DNA of 32,000 nt from Candidatus Saccharimonadota bacterium (GTDB lineage Bacteria > Patescibacteriota > Gracilibacteria > BD1-5 > UBA6164), in contig OZ245922.1 of the NCBI GenBank assembly GCA_965229705.1, positions 150,001 through 182,000 of the forward strand, given 5' to 3'. Position numbers and translations under genes: made by a program. Within the stretch, counting starts at the first letter, position 1; each line of letters opens with the position of its first letter. Shown here one piece after another: positions 2 through 11,606 of this stretch. The notes beneath the pieces were generated by a model that was not told where the DNA came from, ran no database searches, and saw only the letters and a program-made list of their open reading frames with translations.

Positions 2-427
2 ATAGGAATGCAGACAACACTCAATATTCCTATTCTCGGATACGCAAACGCCGGTACGCCACTAGCAGTTGCTGAGAGTAATGACTATGGAACACTCCCT
101 ATCTCAAAAAATATTATCGGAGAAAATTCAGGAGAATACTTTGTACTACGAGTTTCATGAACAAGTATGAATGAGTGTGAAGTATCAGGGAAAAAGCTCG
201 AAAATGGGAGTTATGTTTTGATTAAGAAAGATGAACGAGTACTCAATGAGAGAGATCCTTTTTTGTTTATCGTAAACGGATGAGCGACTCTCAAGCGTTA
301 TAAGAAAAATGCATGACAAGTGTACCTTCTTCCACAGTCAAATGAAGACCATCATACTCCTATTATCCTCTCAGAATCTGATGAAGTATATCCAAGTGGA
401 AAGGTTGTAGATGTGTTTCACTTTTAG
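2..427 (+). CDS. lexA: LexA-like S24 peptidase repressor, C-terminal part (5' end outside window)
   Basis: Frame 2 reads ..IPILGYANAGTPLAVAE..GEYFVLRVSGTSMNE..NGSYVLIKKDE..FIVNGGATLKRYKK..LLPQSNE..GKVVDVFHF, with TAG stop at 425-427. It has the LexA layout: an Ala-Gly autocleavage site (ANAG), a Ser nucleophile motif (SGTSM) and a Lys in TLKRY. The Gly of SGTSM is TGA at 158-160. Confidence 0.65.
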
Positions 428-469
428 GGAAAAAGAAAAAACTTTGATTTTTGGCTAAAAACGATATAG

Positions 470-686
470 TGAAGCCTACGAAAGGCGTTTGAGTCTCGCT
501 GACACGGGACGAGCTAGAGGAAGAACCCCCTCTCTATACATAGTGATTACTAGGGATAGTAGAACCTCTCGGAGTCGAAATACTTCGTCAAAAAAATACA
601 ATTGAGTATCGTTTTTGGTGGCACCTTCATACCGTGTAATATTCTCGGATGACCAAAAGCACATGAATATTTTTCGTGTGTTTTTT
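470..686 (+). promoter_or_regulatory. T-box-like tRNA-sensing transcription attenuator (aspS leader)
   Basis: GGTGGCACC at 617-625 matches the T-box core GGUGGNACC. The proposed antiterminator has helix A1 (611-618 with 653-660), a 5'-side bulge UGGCACCU (619-626), and helix A2 (627-634 with 646-652). A competing terminator at 655-686 reuses the A1 3' strand. N=C fits a G73 discriminator as in tRNA-Asp. Candidate GAC specifier codons lie at 501-503 and 508-510. I could not fold Stem I convincingly by eye. Confidence 0.55.
655..686 (+). terminator. Intrinsic terminator of the aspS leader
   Basis: Stem CACATGAA (660-667) pairs with TTCGTGTG (673-680) with one G-U pair and loop TATTT. It can extend through AAAAG/TTTTT and is followed by a T6 run (681-686), 24 nt before the aspS ATG. 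Confidence 0.6.
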
Positions 687-709
687 ATATATAGAGTAAC
701 ACTATTTTT

Positions 710-2530
710 ATGCATAGAAGTCATAACTGTAATCAACTTACAGCAAAAAATATTTGAGAGCAAGTCATGCTTGCTTGATGGGTGAGTAACCGTCGAGATC
801 ATGGAGGAATTATTTTTATAGATCTCAGAGATCGTTATGGTCTGACACAAGTGGTGTTTGACCCAGAAGATGATACGGCGTCTTGGGAACTCGCAGACAG
901 TTTGAGATCAGAATATGTGATCAAGATTCAAGGAACAGTGAGGTCTCGACCAGACGGTCAGAATAACCCAAATATGTTTACGGGAGAAATAGAAGTCATT
1001 GTTTCACAGATAGAGCTTTTATCAAAATCAAAAACTCCTCCTTTTGAACTAGATGAACATGCTACCGAGGCAAAAGAAGATCTCAGACTCAAATATCGCT
1101 ATCTTGACATGAGAAGAAAGAAAATACACGACTTTATTGCCTTTCGTTCAGAGATGACGCACTATACACGAAACTGGTTTATACAGCGAGGCTTTTATGA
1201 TGTACAGACCCCTATTCTTGCAAACTCTTCTCCTGAGTGAGCGAGAGATTTTCTGGTACCGAGTCGGTTGAATCCGGGAACATTTTATGCGCTTCCTCAA
1301 GCACCTCAACAATTTAAGCAACTTCTTATGGTGTGAGGAATAGATAAATATTTTCAGATTGCTCCATGTTTTCGAGATGAAGACCCGCGAGCTGATAGAC
1401 ATGCCGGAGATTTTTATCAAGTGGATTGTGAAATGAGTTTTGTAGAACAGTCAGATATATTTGATGTGGTAGAGTCGTATATTCTCGATATAACACAAGA
1501 ACTCTCATCTCAAGAGATTCTTTCTGAAACTCCGTGAAAAGATACTCTCAGAGAAGGAGGAAAATTTTTTCTCCTTACTCATGAAGCAGCAATTGAAAAA
1601 TATGGTTCAGATAAACCAGATCTCCGCTATGGTATGGAACTCATGGATGTAGATGATATATTTGCTCGTAGTTCCAATGAGATATTCTCATCAATTGCTA
1701 CTGATAAGAAGAAAAATAGGATTAAAGCATTGAAAGTCTCAGGATGAGACACGGTATTTTCCAAAACACAGATGAAATGATTTGAGAGTTATGTGCGTCA
1801 GTTTGGAGCTCAATGACTTGGATATTTTCAGATGAAGGAGGATGGGCTGAAAGGACCACTTAATAAGTTTTTTGAAGAAAAAGATCTCAAAGAAATTGTT
1901 GAGAGAACAGAGCTTGAATTAGGAGATGTGATATTTTTTGGAGCAGGGGAAAGAGAACTTGTATGTCATTATATGGGAAAATTTCGAATATATCTTGCGG
2001 AGCTTCTTGACTTGCAAGATCCAAACACAATAGTGTTTTGTTGGATCACAGATTTTCCTATTTTTGAAAAAGACGAAGTTACCGGGAAGATAGACTTTGA
2101 ACACAATCCATTTTCGATGCCTCAGTGATGAGCAAGTGATTTTGAAAAAGAGGGAGATGAGCTTCTTAAAGTGAAAGGGTTTCAGTACGATCTTGCTTGT
2201 AATGGGTATGAGATACTCTCATGAGCTATTCGAAACCATGATATTGAGAGCCTTGTACAAGCTTTTGAAAAGGTTGGTAGGAGCGCAGATGAAGTGAGAG
2301 AAAAGTTTGGGGCTATGTATGAGGCTTTTCAGTATGGGGTCCCTCCTCATGGTGGATTTGCTATTGGTTTTGATAGGCTTATGATGATTTATTTGAACGA
2401 AGAAAATATTCGTGATATCTATGCTTTTCCAAAATCTGGAAGGGGAAAAGATGAGATGATGAACTCTCCAGTTACAGTTGATGATGATATGCTTGAAGAG
2501 TTAGGCTTAGAACTCTCTGTTTGAGAATAA
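710..2530 (+). CDS. aspS: Aspartate--tRNA ligase (606 aa)
   Basis: It starts [44 protein letters not shown]. It also contains [37 protein letters not shown] and [18 protein letters not shown]. Track fragments 782-1240, 1832-2128 and 2294-2524 are all in this frame and are joined by TGA=Gly. The true stop is TAA at 2528-2530. Confidence 0.95.
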
Positions 2531-2566
2531 AGGAAGCTCTGAGAAAATATTTCTTAAAAAGATTCT

Positions 2567-3478
2567 ATGATTCGGCATCTTCAGATAAAAGGGATTACCT
2601 GGATTGATGCGGTAAATCCGAGCTGAGAGGATATTGCAAAGATTCTCAGTCCTTATGACTTTCATGAGCTTGATATTGAAGCTGTTCTGGAACCAAATCA
2701 GAGAGCTCGTATAGACAGTTATGGGAGTTATATGTTTCTTACACTGCACTTTCCAAAATATAATAACTATAAAAAACTCTATGAACTCAATGAGTTTCAT
2801 ATATTTCTCGGAAAAAATTTTCTCATTACTCTTCGAGACTTTGACGGGAGGCATATAGATGAGATATATGAAAAATATGAGAAAAAAGGAGATGATGACG
2901 AGTATGATATTGATGTTTCTTCATGACTTATTCTCTATGAGATTATTCAAGAAATGCTAGAAAAAATGTTTAAGGTAGGGACTAATGTTCGAAAAGATAT
3001 TGCAAAGATTGAGAAAGAGGTGTTTCAGAGTCCAACGAGTCCACTCGTACGAGATATATTAATAAAAAAAAGAAATATCATAGTCCTCAAGCATATGTTT
3101 GAGCCACAAATGCCCGTTCTCATAGGTCTGGAAAATCATATGAAAAAACTTTTTGATGATGAGATAGAGGCGTATTTTGAGGACTTAGAAGATAAACTTC
3201 AAAAAATCATTACAGATATTTTGATACTCGAAGAGCAGATACAGTCGGTAGAAGATGCGTTTACGGCTATGATTGATATCCAAACAAACACGATTATTAA
3301 GTTGTTGACTATTTTTTCGGCCTTTGTTCTCCCTTTGACGCTGATTACAAGTTTTTATGGAATGAATATTGATCTTCCGTTTCAAGAAAATCCATTTTTT
3401 GCGTATGTTCTTATGGCAGTTTCTGTCTGTGTTCTGGGTCTTGTTTTTTTATATTTTCAGAGGAAGAGAAGGATGTAG
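2567..3478 (+). CDS. corA: CorA-family magnesium/cobalt transporter (303 aa)
   Basis: It starts MIRHLQIKGITWIDAVNPSGEDI. It carries the C-terminal YGMNIDLPF (GMN) motif flanked by two TM helices. Track fragments 2732-2926 and 2954-3478 are in the same frame and joined by TGA. Confidence 0.85.
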
Positions 3479-3583
3479 TTGTGTGAAATACAAGTCTCTC
3501 GGTGTTTGCTAAATAAAAAATCATATTTTCCCTTTTTCAGATATTTTGTATAATCCCACCACTTTATTTTTCATAGACAAGAA

Positions 3584-5068
3584 ATGTACGCAAAAGTAAC
3601 AATTATTGGTCGTCCAAATGTCGGAAAGTCGAGTATTTTTAATATGATGACGGGTCATAAAATCGCTATAGTTGCTGATGAGGCAGGAACAACACGGGAT
3701 ATATCAGAGTTTGAATATACAGATGAAAAACATGATCTCACATATATTCTTGCAGATTCTGGAGGACTTGATTATGGAAGTAGTGATGATGAAGTTGCAG
3801 AAGATATTGTAGAGAGAACAGAAAAGGCTATTGCAGAGAGTGATATACTCTTATGGGTGATAGAATATGATAGATTTACAAAGCTTGATGAAGATATTGC
3901 AAAAATCCTAAGAAAGGCAAAGAGAAACAATATCATCATACTTGCTAACAAAGCAGATAATAAGTCGCAAGTGATGGAGTCATGGAGTCAAGCAGGGAGA
4001 GGAGAAAAAGAGTTTTTCCCTGTATCAAGCTCACATAACTCTGGTCTGGGTGACGTGAAAAGATATATTGCAAAATTTCTCACAGAAAAATGACTCAACT
4101 ACAAAAAAGAACTTGATGATACTACACTCAAGATTGCATTTATTGGTCGTCCAAATGTTGGAAAATCTAGTCTCGTAAACGCTATTGTAGGATCACAAAG
4201 AGTCATGGTAAAAGATATGTCAGGAACAACTCGTGATGCTGTGGATACAAAGTTTACATACCTTCATAAAAAATTAGATATCAAAGCAAACTCTTCTCCT
4301 GAACAGAGAGATGAAGACGAATCTGTTGAGTTTACACTCATTGATACAGCTGGTATTCGGAGACTCTCAAAAGTATGAACACGAAATATTGAAAACTGGT
4401 CAGTGATGCGCAGTGAAAGAGCTCTCAGGAGAGCAGATGTTGTAGCGATAGTTATAGACGGGTTTGATGGAGTAGTACAGCAAGATCTTTCTCTTATCTC
4501 TGAAGCTATCGAAGAAAAAAAATGACTCATTATCATCGTAAATAAGTGGGATAAGGTTTTAGAGAAAGCTCGTCTCAATTCATCAACCTCGATGAGTGAT
4601 CAATCAGGTGCAAGTAAACAGGAAGAACAAGAGGAAAAATCAAAGATGATGCTCAAATATATCGACTACCTCAAAGAAAAGATAGAGTTTATATCATGGG
4701 CATCTATTATATTTACTTCAGCGACAGAGAAAAAAAGAGTAAGTGAGATACTTGATGAAGCGATAAGAATATCCGCAGAGAGAGGAAAGAGAGTGAAAAC
4801 AAGTATCATGAATGAGTTTCTAGAGCAGGCAGTATACCACCATCCACCAACAGGAAATAAAAAGTCTCATTCCCCCAAGATATATTATGGTTCTCAGGTA
4901 GATACTCATCCTCCGAAGTTTATTATTTCTGTGAATAATCCAGATCATTTTCACTTTTCCTACAAGCGTTATCTCGAAAATAAGATCAGAGACAATTTTG
5001 GTTTTGAGGGAACTCCTATAGTGATTGAGTATAAGGGGAGAGGAAAATATAAGGATGTGAAAAAATAA
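3584..5068 (+). CDS. der: Ribosome-associated GTPase Der/EngA (494 aa)
   Basis: It has two tandem G domains ([20 protein letters not shown] and [22 protein letters not shown]) and a KH-like C-terminus ([27 protein letters not shown]). Fragments 3584-4093 and 4592-5068 are in frame with no TAA/TAG between them. Confidence 0.9.
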
Positions 5069-5071
5069 TTA

Positions 5072-6064
5072 TTACCGTAAATACAAGCTTTTATTGTGTT
5101 CGTGTTCAGCGTTTGTCCGAGCGTAGTAAATCTGTCCAGTAAGAGTATCATGGAGATAGTAGTAGTACGGACTTTGTTTTGGAGAAATAACAGCTTCGAT
5201 ACTACTCAGGCTCGGGTTTCCTATCGGACCAGCTGGTAGACCAGTTTTTTGCCTCGTATTATACTCATTTTTATCATAGAGGTATTTTGTTACAGAAAGC
5301 TTGCATTCTTGAGAAGTGAGTCTATGGGCATAACATACCGTAATATCTGCTCATATTTTCCAGCCTTCATTGAGTCGTTTTTTTAGTATTCCTGCCACAA
5401 TGGGGCGTTCACTAGTATTTCGTTCTTCTTTTTCGACAATGCTTGCAAGTGTTATTATTTCATGAAAACTCCCGTCTTCTATTTCTCAAGAGAGAGAAGT
5501 TTGGGGGGAAATCTTTTTTTCAAAATTACTGAGCATTTTTCTTGCAAGTCACTCTACTTGAAAACTGCGAGGATTGACAGCGTAAGTATCTGGATAGAGA
5601 TATCCCTCAAGGGAAGAGATATTTTTGAGGAAGGGGTATTCACTTTCTAAGCTATGGTTTTCAGCGTAGGAAATAAAGTCAGAAGCTCAAATCAATCACT
5701 TGCTTGTGAGAAATGCGTCAATATCAAAGATATTCCATCACTCTAAAAATGTAAGAAAGATATCTCATTCATACTGAGGTTTTTCTAGATTTGCTATAAA
5801 CTGTTGTATATTTGATCATGAGGGAATCATATATTCTCCTGCTTGGAGTTCAAAACTGGGAGGATTATTCCTCAGATAGAGTTTTGTAAAAAAAGGTTTT
5901 TTTGTTTTTTCAGAGAGGATATGTGAGAAAGTAGTATTTTTTTTGACGGTAAAACTGGTTTCTTCGGTAAAGAGAATTTCATTTTTGTAGTTTGAATATT
6001 GCCAGGAGAATATAAGAAAAGTAAGAATAATGATTCAAAATCAGATTTTTATAGTATTGAACAT
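5072..6064 (-). CDS. mltG: Endolytic murein transglycosylase MltG/YceG-like (330 aa)
   Basis: It has an N-terminal TM segment (MFNTIKIGFGIIILTFLIFSW) and the family C-terminus NTRQKTGLPAGPIGNPSLSSIEAVISPKQSPYYYYL..YYARTNAEHEHN. The frame is open under code 25 (checked codon by codon). The gene is absent from the supplied track. Confidence 0.8.
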
Positions 6065-6129
6065 AAGGTATTGAAAAGAAATTATTATGCCATCATATGA
6101 GGAAAGTTTTTGAAGTAAAAGAAACAAGT

Positions 6130-6159
6130 TTGACAAATAATTTTTAAGGATTATATAGT
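6130..6159 (+). promoter_or_regulatory. Putative sigma70-type promoter for the AAA+/hicBA unit
   Basis: A perfect TTGACA sits at 6130-6135. TATATA follows at 16-nt spacing and TATAGT at 18-nt spacing, about 40 nt upstream of the ATG at 6196. This is a motif match only. Confidence 0.3.
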
Positions 6160-6195
6160 ATAATACTATAAGTACGTAAATAAAATTATATAAAT

Positions 6196-7413
6196 ATGAT
6201 AAAAAACAGCTTCCATGAGTGACTACCAGATGAAGATATAGTATCTTGAATACTGGATTTATCTCAAAGTTCAGATGCGATATTAGACATATCATCAGAA
6301 TTACTAAAAGAAGTTATTTGACAAGATAATGCAAAGAAAATTCTACGTGATATATTAGAGGAGATAACTTCAGGAGTAAATTTGCGAAAAGCGGGATATA
6401 ACAAGCCCATAGCAAGCATGATCTTTGCATGACCTAGTTGAGTAGGAAAAACACTACTTGCAAGAGTAACCCAAAAAATACTCAATAAGCATTTTTCTAA
6501 TGAAATTGAGATTATAAAAATCAACTGTGCTGATTTTGCAGGTGAGAGCATTTACGGTATCACAAGGCTTACATGAGCAAGTGCAGGATTTATTTGATCA
6601 GATAGAAAGCCTGTATTACATCCAGATAATGTAGAATGAAAAGGAAGAGTGATTTTACTCGATGAAATCGAAAAAGCTTGACCTGCCTTTTGGAATATTC
6701 TCCTCTCTATTCTTGATGATGGTACGCTCGATATTGATTACACAGAAACTAATAAAGAGAAAGCGGAACCTCTCATCCTTGATTGAAAAGCGGTAGATAG
6801 TACTGATATTTCATCACTTCGAACATTGTTTTGAGATAGTGTTATTATTATGACTTCAAATATTTGAAATGATGCAGTAGAAAAAGAATTGCAAGGTTTA
6901 GCTATAGGATTTTGATCATGAGAAAAAGATCCTGAAGATGTAGATATAGAGTCTATTATTCTACAGGAATTCTGAAAGCAGTTCAGAATTGAGATGCAGT
7001 GAAGATTTGATTATGTTGTCCATCTAGAGCATCTTACAAAAGATAATGCAAGAGATATAATAAATCAGCTGATCAATAGACTCAGTACTAATACTCTTTC
7101 AAAGTGAAATGGTTTTGTAATAGAGTTTACTAACGAAGCAAAAGAAAAAATTCTTGATGAAATAACAAATTCTCCTAGTTTTCGAAAGTTTGGATGAAGA
7201 TATATTGAATGATATTTCAAAAAGAATGTTATTCCTTATGTTGCAAAAGCGATAAATTCTTGAAAATTCAGAGAAGATGAGAATCATAGTTGTTTACTTG
7301 TTACTCTCCATAATGGAGAAATTGTATTTTCAAAGATTCCTATTTGAGAATCTAAAGAAGTAAAGATAAAAGTTGAAAAAACCTTGGGACGGCGTAATGA
7401 TTCTACTATATAG
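6196..7413 (+). CDS. Single-domain Clp/Hsp100 D2-like AAA+ ATPase with an IGF loop (405 aa)
   Basis: Motifs seen are VIGQDNAKKIL, Walker A FAGPSGVGKT (both Gly are TGA, 6430-6432 and 6439-6441), Walker B VILLDEIEKA and sensor-1 IIMTSNIG. There is an AIGFGSG tripeptide loop (IGF at 6904-6912) and FRIEMQGRFDYVVHLEHL, resembling FRPEFLNRID. There is no N-domain or D1 ring. It contains 21 in-frame TGA against 14 GGN codons, so no ORF appears in the track. Confidence 0.8.
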
Positions 7414-7483
7414 GTTTTTAGAAACTCCTTGAAAAACATGATCAAAGAACTATACTACAAATAATAACCATTAAGATACTATC

Positions 7484-7783
7484 ATGCAAGAACAAGAAAA
7501 TCTTCATCTTCCACTTTTACTTGACCAAGACGAGGATGGAATCTGGGTTGCTGAGTCTCCTATTTTTGATGGATTCTTCACGCAGGGATACTCAAAAGAG
7601 GAGTTGCAAGATAACTTACAAGATTTATCAAATATGTATTTTGCTATGATAAAGGAGTGAAAGAAACCATTTAAGCATAGTTATCTTATTAGTTTACAAT
7701 ACAATAAAGATGGTAAAATTACCAATGATCTGAAGCAAGAAATTGATCAAACTTTTGAAAAAAAGATGATTTGAGCTTGTTAG
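7484..7783 (+). CDS. hicB: HicB-family antitoxin (99 aa under code 25)
   Basis: MQEQENLHLPLLLDQDEDGIWVAESPIFDGFFTQGYSKEELQDNLQDLSNMYFAMIKEGKKPF resembles the HicB/UPF0150 N-domain. With TGA=Gly the frame runs to TAG at 7781-7783, overlapping hicA by 74 nt. Confidence 0.7.
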
Positions 7784-7943
7784 ATCATCAGGAAGTCATC
7801 AACAATATATGTATGAAAATATCACTGTGACGGTTCCTGTTCATTGTGGAAAAGATATATGAAGGTGACTTTTGAGAGTTATCCTCAAACAAGCTGGTAT
7901 TTCTCATCAAGAGTTTTTAGATGAAGTTGGAGTCAGAAATTAA
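7710..7943 (+). CDS. hicA: HicA-family mRNA interferase toxin (77 aa)
   Basis: MVKLPMIGSKKLIKLLKKRGFELVRSSGSHQQYMYENITVTVPVHCGKDIGRGLLRVILKQAGISHQEFLDEV follows the HicA pattern (KLP..SGKE.IK.L.K.GF...R..GSH.......TVP.H.GK...G.L..IL.QAGI). The stop is TAA at 7941-7943. Confidence 0.8.
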
Positions 7944-8069
7944 GAAATTCTTCCTTGACTTCATTTTTTTTTCGCTATACTCCCTGTGTTCGCACAAGGT
8001 TTTGATGAGTTCTAGGGGAAAATCTTGGGCATTTTTTTGCGTTTTAATTTTTAATATCATTTTCACCAT

Positions 8070-11606
<3,537 letters not shown>

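Follow-up and report, generated by a model that had tools for sequence, protein, structure and literature searches.

A 32 000-nucleotide (nt) window from the closed 1.007-Mb genome of Candidatus Saccharimonadota bacterium, a member of the Gracilibacteria (contig OZ245922.1, positions 150 001–182 000, forward strand), contains a gene, here denoted A1, that encodes a single-ring AAA+ ATPase of the Clp/Hsp100 D2 type and is followed by a hicB–hicA toxin–antitoxin (TA) pair (Table 1). On balance, A1 appears to be an accessory, ClpP-coupled unfoldase that lies next to an autonomous hicBA pair. It is most likely a lineage-specific, new architectural variant of a ClpP partner, with ClpP activation suggested by the motif, the fold and the genomic context. 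An earlier interpretation of the same DNA, made from the letters alone (hereinafter, the sequence-only reading), had tentatively joined the three genes into a TA–unfoldase cassette, an arrangement that does not recur in the gene neighborhoods surveyed below. All translations follow genetic code 25 (TGA = Gly); rpoB (8070–11606 of the window) and most of the other genes are open under this code only.

By domain architecture, A1 amounts to one D2 ring. Hidden Markov model searches with Pfam yielded AAA_2 (E = 2.2e-22, 80.3 bits against a cut-off of 27) and ClpB_D2-small (E = 9.2e-6, 26.1 bits against a cut-off of 21.9), and the NCBIfam models of ClpB, ClpA, ClpK, ClpV and ClpG match A1 over their D2 parts only, far under the cut-offs (110–124 bits against 993–1232 for the two-ring equivalog models), which leaves one AAA+ module. 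No Clp_N domain was found with Pfam, with ~35 residues lying ahead of the D2 core, and the domain search of the 405-amino acid (aa) protein detected neither a D1 ring nor an M-domain. Walker A, Walker B and sensor-1 are all present, and the FRxExxxRFD block holds the arginine finger; on all these points, the description of a lone D2 ring without N-domain or D1 ring that was given in the sequence-only reading holds. Among solved structures, the top match of A1 is the D2 ring of Staphylococcus aureus ClpC (residues 495–756; E = 1.9e-30). When the AlphaFold2 (AF2) model of A1, built from 28 orthologues (predicted local distance difference test score (pLDDT) of 77, predicted TM-score (pTM) of 0.76), was used as the query for Foldseek, the chains of the ClpC1:ClpP1P2 and MecA/ClpC/ClpP complexes ranked first (E ~5e-23), and the target-normalized TM-score against the second nucleotide-binding domain (NBD2) of ClpB was 0.72–0.80.

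Conservation of the motifs was read from the alignment of the 28 A1 orthologues; in many of the database entries, TGA had been translated under code 4 and appears as W, and 11 A1 rows as well as 24 rows of A2, a second family of single-ring proteins, were re-translated under code 25. All the ATPase and translocation motifs are invariant or near-invariant. The aromatic position of the pore-1 loop is F or Y throughout the family (F132 in A1). The insertion at the pore-2 position varies in sequence and length among the orthologues, and the AF2 model gives it short strands at residues 193–211.

A search of 5.8 billion proteins delineates a sharply bounded A1 family of ~30 proteins (394–428 aa, 33–95% identity), all from Gracilibacteria or Absconditabacteria, and beneath it, in the same search, come generic ClpC D2 domains at ~30% identity. 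In the tree of D2 domains, for which the outgroup consisted of 80 loci, all of them ordinary ClpC/ClpB genes, from a contig search with generic Walker-motif patterns, A1 (11 rows) and A2 (24 rows, 560–610 aa) are each monophyletic, with a support of 100 in the Shimodaira–Hasegawa-like approximate likelihood ratio test (SH-aLRT), and neither falls within the clade of canonical two-ring D2 domains (support 98), in which the genome's own ClpC lies. With this position, a recent origin of A1 by truncation of the resident clpC is ruled out. The A1 family descends from the D2, that is, ClpP-facing, ring of the class-I Clp/Hsp100 proteins.

The gene is a rare accessory one rather than a housekeeping one. 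It was found in 3 of the 151 genomes sampled from the class (the window's own genome included), all in one family; of 200 further genomes from the order, 4 were found to have it, and none of the 12 same-genus genomes was. Where present, A1 evolves slowly: its identity is 84% in the closely related locus L098, compared with 74–82% for the adjoining genes, and 69% in L101, where the adjoining genes range from 38 to 88%. The local GC content at the A1 region is 31%, with flanks at 36–40%, and TGA accounts for 60% of the A1 glycine codons, compared with 16% in rpoB and 6% in clpP; both features fit a weakly expressed accessory gene. Gene by gene, the TGA share of glycine codons is 6–16% in clpP, der, rpoB and rpoC, and 47–68% in A1, A2, hicA, yceG and the gene for protein X (see below), a difference that may reflect an expression-linked bias for the reassigned codon.

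The accessory status is further apparent from the location. The order der–yceG–rpoB–rpoC is kept in four same-genus genomes (G117, G168, G243, G217), and their yceG–rpoB gaps, of 345–950 bp, hold a 171-aa GNAT-like open reading frame (ORF), a 182-aa membrane ORF, a 179-aa ORF or nothing. Because the cargo differs among the relatives, the yceG–rpoB region (window 6065–8069) is a cargo hotspot, and A1 and hicBA are each accessory cargo of it.

An argument for coupling to ClpP comes from the loop that follows sensor-1. In the HMMER alignment, I237-G238-F239 of A1 aligns residue-for-residue with A671-G672-F673 of S. aureus ClpC. In the complex of MecA, ClpC and ClpP solved by cryo-electron microscopy, this AGF lies at the tip of the P-loop (residues 660–680) and docks into the H-site of ClpP; ClpP binding is lost in the G672D/F673D mutant of S. 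aureus ClpC (PMC12521514). At the position of this ΦGF motif, all 28 A1 orthologues have [I/M/V/F]GF, and after the re-translation, [I/M]GF is found in every one of the 11 A1 and 24 A2 rows; the ClpB-type rows of the same alignment lack the motif. Given this loss in the ClpB-type rows, the retention of ΦGF in A1 and A2 is informative and suggests that docking to ClpP is under selection. In the AF2 model, the pLDDT of the loop is <50, as expected for a flexible P-loop. Judging from the motif, A1 probably couples to ClpP. From AIGFGSG following sensor-1, the sequence-only reading had suggested a ClpP-coupled unfoldase rather than a ClpB-type disaggregase; the IGF does occupy the position of the docking loop, at a distance of 15 residues from sensor-1 rather than the ~20 given there, and the preference for a ClpP-coupled enzyme gains support from the alignment with AGF, the invariance of the motif, the structural matches to ClpC:ClpP complexes and a clpP gene in the genome.

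This clpP gene is present in a single copy (G000:224318–224938, minus strand, where G000 denotes the window's genome), with the contexts of the catalytic Ser, His and Asp intact. The genome also encodes FtsH and one two-ring ClpC of 862 aa that carries its own IGF (AAQIGFNIS). ClpX is absent from the genome (the top match of TIGR00382 scores 26 bits), and no genuine Lon was found there, with only a partial Lon_C match of 23.6 bits; ClpC and FtsH appear to be the sole canonical AAA+ protease motors. The same holds for ClpX in the order at large: it was detected in none of the 201 sampled genomes, whereas ClpP is present in 187 of these (123 of the 129 high-quality ones), including every A1-positive genome.

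From these fold, motif, tree and distribution data, a mode of action can be proposed. A1 would probably form a hexamer whose pore, with the F/Y pore-1 loop as its lining, threads the substrates, and it would dock on the single ClpP of the genome via the invariant ΦGF loops. It would thus act as an accessory ClpP activator in addition to the two-ring ClpC of the genome, in an order with ClpP but with neither ClpX nor Lon. Because A1 lacks the N-domain, D1 ring and M-domain, substrates would have to be selected in one of three ways, namely through the N-terminal segment of 35 conserved residues, through the pore-2-position insertion or through an adaptor.

Several considerations weigh against this interpretation. 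The ΦGF motif is necessary for ClpP docking, yet is no proof of it, and a D2 ring alone, without a partner, may fail at hexamer formation or at substrate recognition. Given its X (340 aa) and A2 neighbors on the two contigs with the closest orthologues, A1 may work within a different multi-protein system. The patchy distribution means that A1 is no general replacement of ClpX. Finally, two points concern the independence of the TA pair: there is no terminator between A1 and hicB, so that co-transcription is possible, and the turnover of HicB, if it occurs, has few routes. In Escherichia coli, Lon degrades HicB (PMC4963847); with neither Lon nor ClpX in the genome analyzed here, any regulated turnover of HicB must go through ClpP (with ClpC, A1 or A2) or FtsH.

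The hotspot location and the very patchy distribution of A1, which shifts position among genomes, would also fit a gene of a conflict or defense island, with A1 as a ClpB/ClpC-D2-like ATPase akin to that of Dodola (DolB) or of the candidate system PDC-M37, directed against phages or mobile elements with or without ClpP. PADLOC matches A1 to PDC-M37B (3.8e-24) and DolB (1.4e-15), the region is low in GC and adjoins a TA pair, and some orthologues lie near type I restriction–modification genes (L147), an Xre-like helix-turn-helix (HTH) gene (L146) or SWI2/SNF2 fragments (L145). However, the PADLOC matches span only the generic AAA_2 core, residues 19–179 of the 405, with the DolB profile matched at positions 127–258 of its 375; with no DolA or other known partner nearby, membership of A1 in either system was rejected and the similarity is one of resemblance only. 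No single neighbor recurs among the A1 orthologues, the conservation of A1, which is about that of housekeeping genes in L098, is atypical of fast-evolving defense genes, no integrase gene was found at the A1 locus, and the repeat search revealed neither direct nor inverted repeats in the flanks as signs of a mobile element. A defense role thus appears unlikely.

Several neighborhoods suggest, instead, that A1 could act independently of ClpP, as a remodeler or as one subunit of a system that also comprises X and A2, with a possible link to RNA turnover. X is a ~340-aa protein without a known domain, and A2, in the window's genome, is the second single-ring D2-like protein, of ~545 aa (KPIGFYAH; 683410–685047); the A2 family (~545–610 aa) combines a D2-like ring, the invariant [I/M]GF and a C-terminal extension of ~170–200 aa. 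X precedes A2 both in the window's genome, where X–A2 directly follow a beta-CASP/MBL hydrolase gene (G000:C1:680622–685047), and in L097, one of the two contigs with the closest A1 orthologues, on which the order is A1–X–A2–RNB (358–5606); on the other, L098, it is rplK–A1–X (5001–7315). X–A2 possibly constitute an RNase-associated, Clp-like module. D2-only proteins, CLPB/Skd3 for example, function without a peptidase, and CLPB is among the solved-structure matches of A1. Against such a role, X is missing from the A1-positive genomes G022, G047 and G171, which rules out A1–X–A2 as an obligatory unit; A2 was not detected at E ≤ 1e-35 in G047 and G171, although G022 has an A2-like match; and 527 kb separate A1 from X–A2 in the window's genome. 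The invariant ΦGF of A1 and A2 is hard to explain without ClpP docking given that the ClpB-type D2 rings lose this motif. We regard an action independent of ClpP as quite improbable.

The two downstream genes belong to a known type of system. The hicB gene starts 70 nt after the A1 stop codon on the same strand, as the sequence-only reading had it, and its 3′ end shares 74 nt (7710–7783) with hicA, which is read in a different frame. HicA scores well above its Pfam cut-off (Table 1) and carries a G-S-H30 motif, the sequence context of the catalytic His, whereas HicB is recognizable only by weak similarity: the Pfam matches are under the cut-offs (E ~0.1–0.2), PHROG 497 is matched with E = 0.0036, hhalign gives a probability of 80% for the match to the second HicB of the genome, and a search of solved structures with the HicB profile yields weak matches to TTHA1756 and TTHA1013. 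The top match of the latter search, a designed repeat protein, is spurious. The AF2 model of HicB has a pLDDT of 52, too low for a fold search, with the secondary-structure order beta-beta-beta-alpha-beta and a core that runs to about residue 73. The tail is accordingly ~26 aa long, not the ~40 aa suggested in the sequence-only reading, which was nonetheless correct in that no ribbon-helix-helix (RHH) or HTH DNA-binding domain was found in HicB by Pfam, alignment or AF2 model.

This tailed HicB is not unique to the window. Ten homologues of 97–99 aa show 61–73% identity and a conserved tail with the invariant residues Y73, N74, G77, I79, T80, N81 and K94; because residues 76–99 overlap the coding sequence of the conserved HicA N-terminus, part of this conservation may be imposed by hicA. 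In all 12 loci of the tailed HicB family, hicA adjoins hicB, which is strong contextual evidence for the HicB identity of the antitoxin, and the out-of-frame overlap (~60–74 nt) and the position of the hicA start are kept in the 11 loci other than that of the window. In one locus, L150, hicA appears frameshifted. A second hicBA pair in the genome (694427–693986, minus strand) encodes a HicB of 73 aa and a HicA of 75 aa with an 8-nt overlap; this HicB also lacks a DNA-binding domain, and the pair has no ATPase neighbor. It adjoins a HesB/IscA-like gene and Suf-like genes. The pair next to A1 is a separate, autonomous type II TA system of a Gracilibacteria-specific subfamily with a short, tailed HicB.

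The sequence-only reading had tentatively placed A1 and hicBA in one toxin–antitoxin–unfoldase cassette, in which A1 would recognize the C-terminal tail of HicB and set the stability of the antitoxin via ClpP, in the manner of toxin–antitoxin–chaperone (TAC) systems, and had itself named the lack of a recurrent TA neighbor among the ATPase orthologues as the finding that would count against it. Such a lack is what we observe. Among the 16 A1 orthologue loci surveyed, which represent ~11 distinct contexts, none has a HicA or HicB match by tblastn. Downstream of A1 there is a convergent RND-pump gene in G047 and a convergent TPR-protein gene in G022; small lipoprotein-like ORFs and then ApbE follow in L099 and L100; in L101 and L102, the order is tsf–A1 and then a convergent SulP; L145–L149 are other mixed contexts, in addition to those of L097 and L098 described above. 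Reciprocally, an AAA+ neighbor is present in none of the 12 tailed-HicB loci, none of which has a match to A1, A2 or X. Eight other genomes in the order sample carry the tailed HicB, of which seven have no A1; in the eighth, G171, the only other sampled genome with both genes, these lie on different contigs. The adjacency of A1 and hicBA is therefore not a conserved functional unit, and no conserved TA–chaperone linkage is seen from either side.

What remains in favor of the cassette is the co-orientation of the genes with the 70-nt gap and no terminator, the conserved tail of a HicB that lacks a DNA-binding domain, and the absence of Lon and ClpX from the organism, with the HicB of E. coli being a Lon substrate (PMC4963847). 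On the opposite side stand, apart from the neighborhoods, the promoter-like site that hicBA has of its own, the constraint that the hicA frame may place on the tail and the variation of the hotspot cargo among relatives. Taken together, these data make the cassette very unlikely. Equally implausible is a combined scheme in which A1 and A2, having originated in ClpX-less, Lon-less Gracilibacteria, are new single-ring, ClpC-D2-derived ClpP activators that serve as island-borne specificity modules, and A1 feeds the tailed HicB to ClpP and so gates HicA, a scheme that supposes a nascent tripartite arrangement in this particular genome.

Table 1. Features of the A1–hicBA region (window positions).
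Feature	Positions	Strand	Description
Promoter-like site	6130..6159	+	TTGACA-18-TATAGT, 11/12; yceG/A1 divergent region, 37 nt upstream of the A1 start; consensus match only
A1 (P0001)	6196..7413	+	405-aa single-ring Clp/Hsp100 D2-type AAA+ ATPase; intact; 21 TGA=Gly codons
Walker A	6430..6453	+	G79-P-S-G-V-G-K-T86; P80, S81, K85 and T86 invariant
Pore-1 loop	6574..6603	+	G127-A-S-A-G-F132-I-G-S-D136; aligns with GAPPGYVGY of canonical ClpC D2
Walker B	6649..6675	+	V152-I-L-L-D-E-I-E-K160; I153, L154, D156, E157, E159 and K160 invariant
Family-specific insertion	6736..6828	+	~25–45 aa, pore-2 position; flanked by DDGTLD and the strand of sensor-1; gap in ClpC
Sensor-1	6853..6861	+	T220-S-N222; T220 and N222 invariant
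ΦGF motif	6904..6912	+	I237-G238-F239, tip of the P-loop, aligned to ClpC AGF; putative ClpP H-site docking motif
Arginine finger	7003..7005	+	R270 in FRIEMQGRFD; invariant
Sensor-2	7198..7200	+	R335 in GGRYIE; invariant
Promoter-like site	7429..7456	+	TTGAAA-16-TATACT, 10/12; inside the 70-nt A1–hicB gap; consensus match only
hicB	7484..7783	+	99-aa putative HicB-family antitoxin; core plus conserved ~26-aa tail; no RHH/HTH domain
hicA	7710..7943	+	77-aa HicA toxin; PF07927, 75.4 bits against a cut-off of 27, E = 3.7e-21

With respect to transcription, the promoter-like site in the A1–hicB gap could, as far as its consensus match goes, give hicBA a transcript of its own, and no terminator-like site was found after the A1 stop codon. 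The longest yceG/mltG ORF (5072–6295, minus strand, 407 aa) overlaps with both the start of A1 and the promoter-like site upstream of it. Given that the YceG proteins of the relatives are 327–340 aa long, translation probably begins at Met 6064 (window position), which yields a 330-aa protein and leaves a divergent intergenic region of 131 nt. At the other end of the hotspot (7937–8047), the last ~60–110 nt before rpoB are 78–87% identical among same-genus genomes, with unrelated flanking DNA; this conserved stretch has no Rfam match and could be an rpoB leader or promoter element. The Rfam scan of 5800–8300 gave a single small RNA match at the chance level. The position after rplK, which holds A1–X in L098, looks like another variable hotspot: in the window's genome (G000:C1:518891–523978), rplK is not followed by rplA, and next to it are a convergent gene for a 494-aa serine-recombinase-like protein and then two further accessory genes.

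Among the known systems, HicAB is recognizable here by the HicA domain with the catalytic His context and the adjoining small antitoxin of the probable HicB fold; the pair differs in the gene order, hicB and then hicA with the conserved out-of-frame overlap, and in that the HicB has a conserved tail in place of an RHH or HTH domain. The combination of a tailed HicB devoid of a DNA-binding domain and a conserved hicB–hicA overlap is, by itself, a minor curiosity. TAC systems (HigBA with a SecB-like chaperone) have a third gene beside the TA pair and an antitoxin with a C-terminal extension (PMC4963847). Both traits have counterparts in the window, but the third gene there encodes an AAA+ unfoldase, not a SecB-like chaperone, and the three-gene linkage is not conserved. 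The TA question is thus answered mostly in the negative, adjacency in a densely packed 1-Mb genome being no evidence of a three-gene system, and the interest of the locus rests on the idea of a single-ring ClpP partner and on the order-wide absence of ClpX.

With DolB and PDC-M37B, A1 has in common the AAA_2 core and the patchy distribution; the differences are that the profile matches are partial and that no DolA partner is found among the neighboring proteins. We know of no ΦGF loop in DolB. CLPB/Skd3 and the isolated NBD2 of ClpB are stand-alone D2-type domains, and the ClpB NBD2 is a close structural match of A1; unlike A1, both have no ΦGF loop and do not bind ClpP, and Skd3 has an ankyrin N-domain. 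The closest likeness, by both sequence and structure, is to the D2 ring of ClpC/ClpC1, with the same Walker A, Walker B, sensor, arginine-finger and pore-1 motifs, a homologously placed ΦGF P-loop as well as the D2-small domain. Nevertheless, A1 is much shorter (405 aa compared with ~810–860 aa) because the N-domain, D1 and M-domain are missing, is only ~27–30% identical to the ClpC D2 and falls in a separate clade from the canonical D2, and has the pore-2-position insertion and a pore-1 loop of the form GASAG(F/Y)IGSD instead of GAPPGYVGY.

In its overall layout, A1 resembles ClpX, with a single AAA+ ring and an IGF-type loop, which in ClpX docks on ClpP, and its role is possibly analogous, in a lineage without ClpX. 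The two are not homologous at the family level (23.1 bits against 370.75 for TIGR00382, and 28.1 against 359 for NF003745): A1 lacks the zinc-binding N-domain, and its AAA+ module is of the AAA_2/ClpB-D2 type. If A1 does drive ClpP, a lone class-I D2 ring without N-domain or D1 would be a complete ClpP partner, which could serve as a minimal, D1-free model for translocation by D2 and for docking through the P-loop and would bear on how a ClpP-positive order devoid of ClpX and Lon diversifies regulated proteolysis in a reduced lineage. In architecture, such a protein would be an analogue of ClpX that evolved from ClpC.

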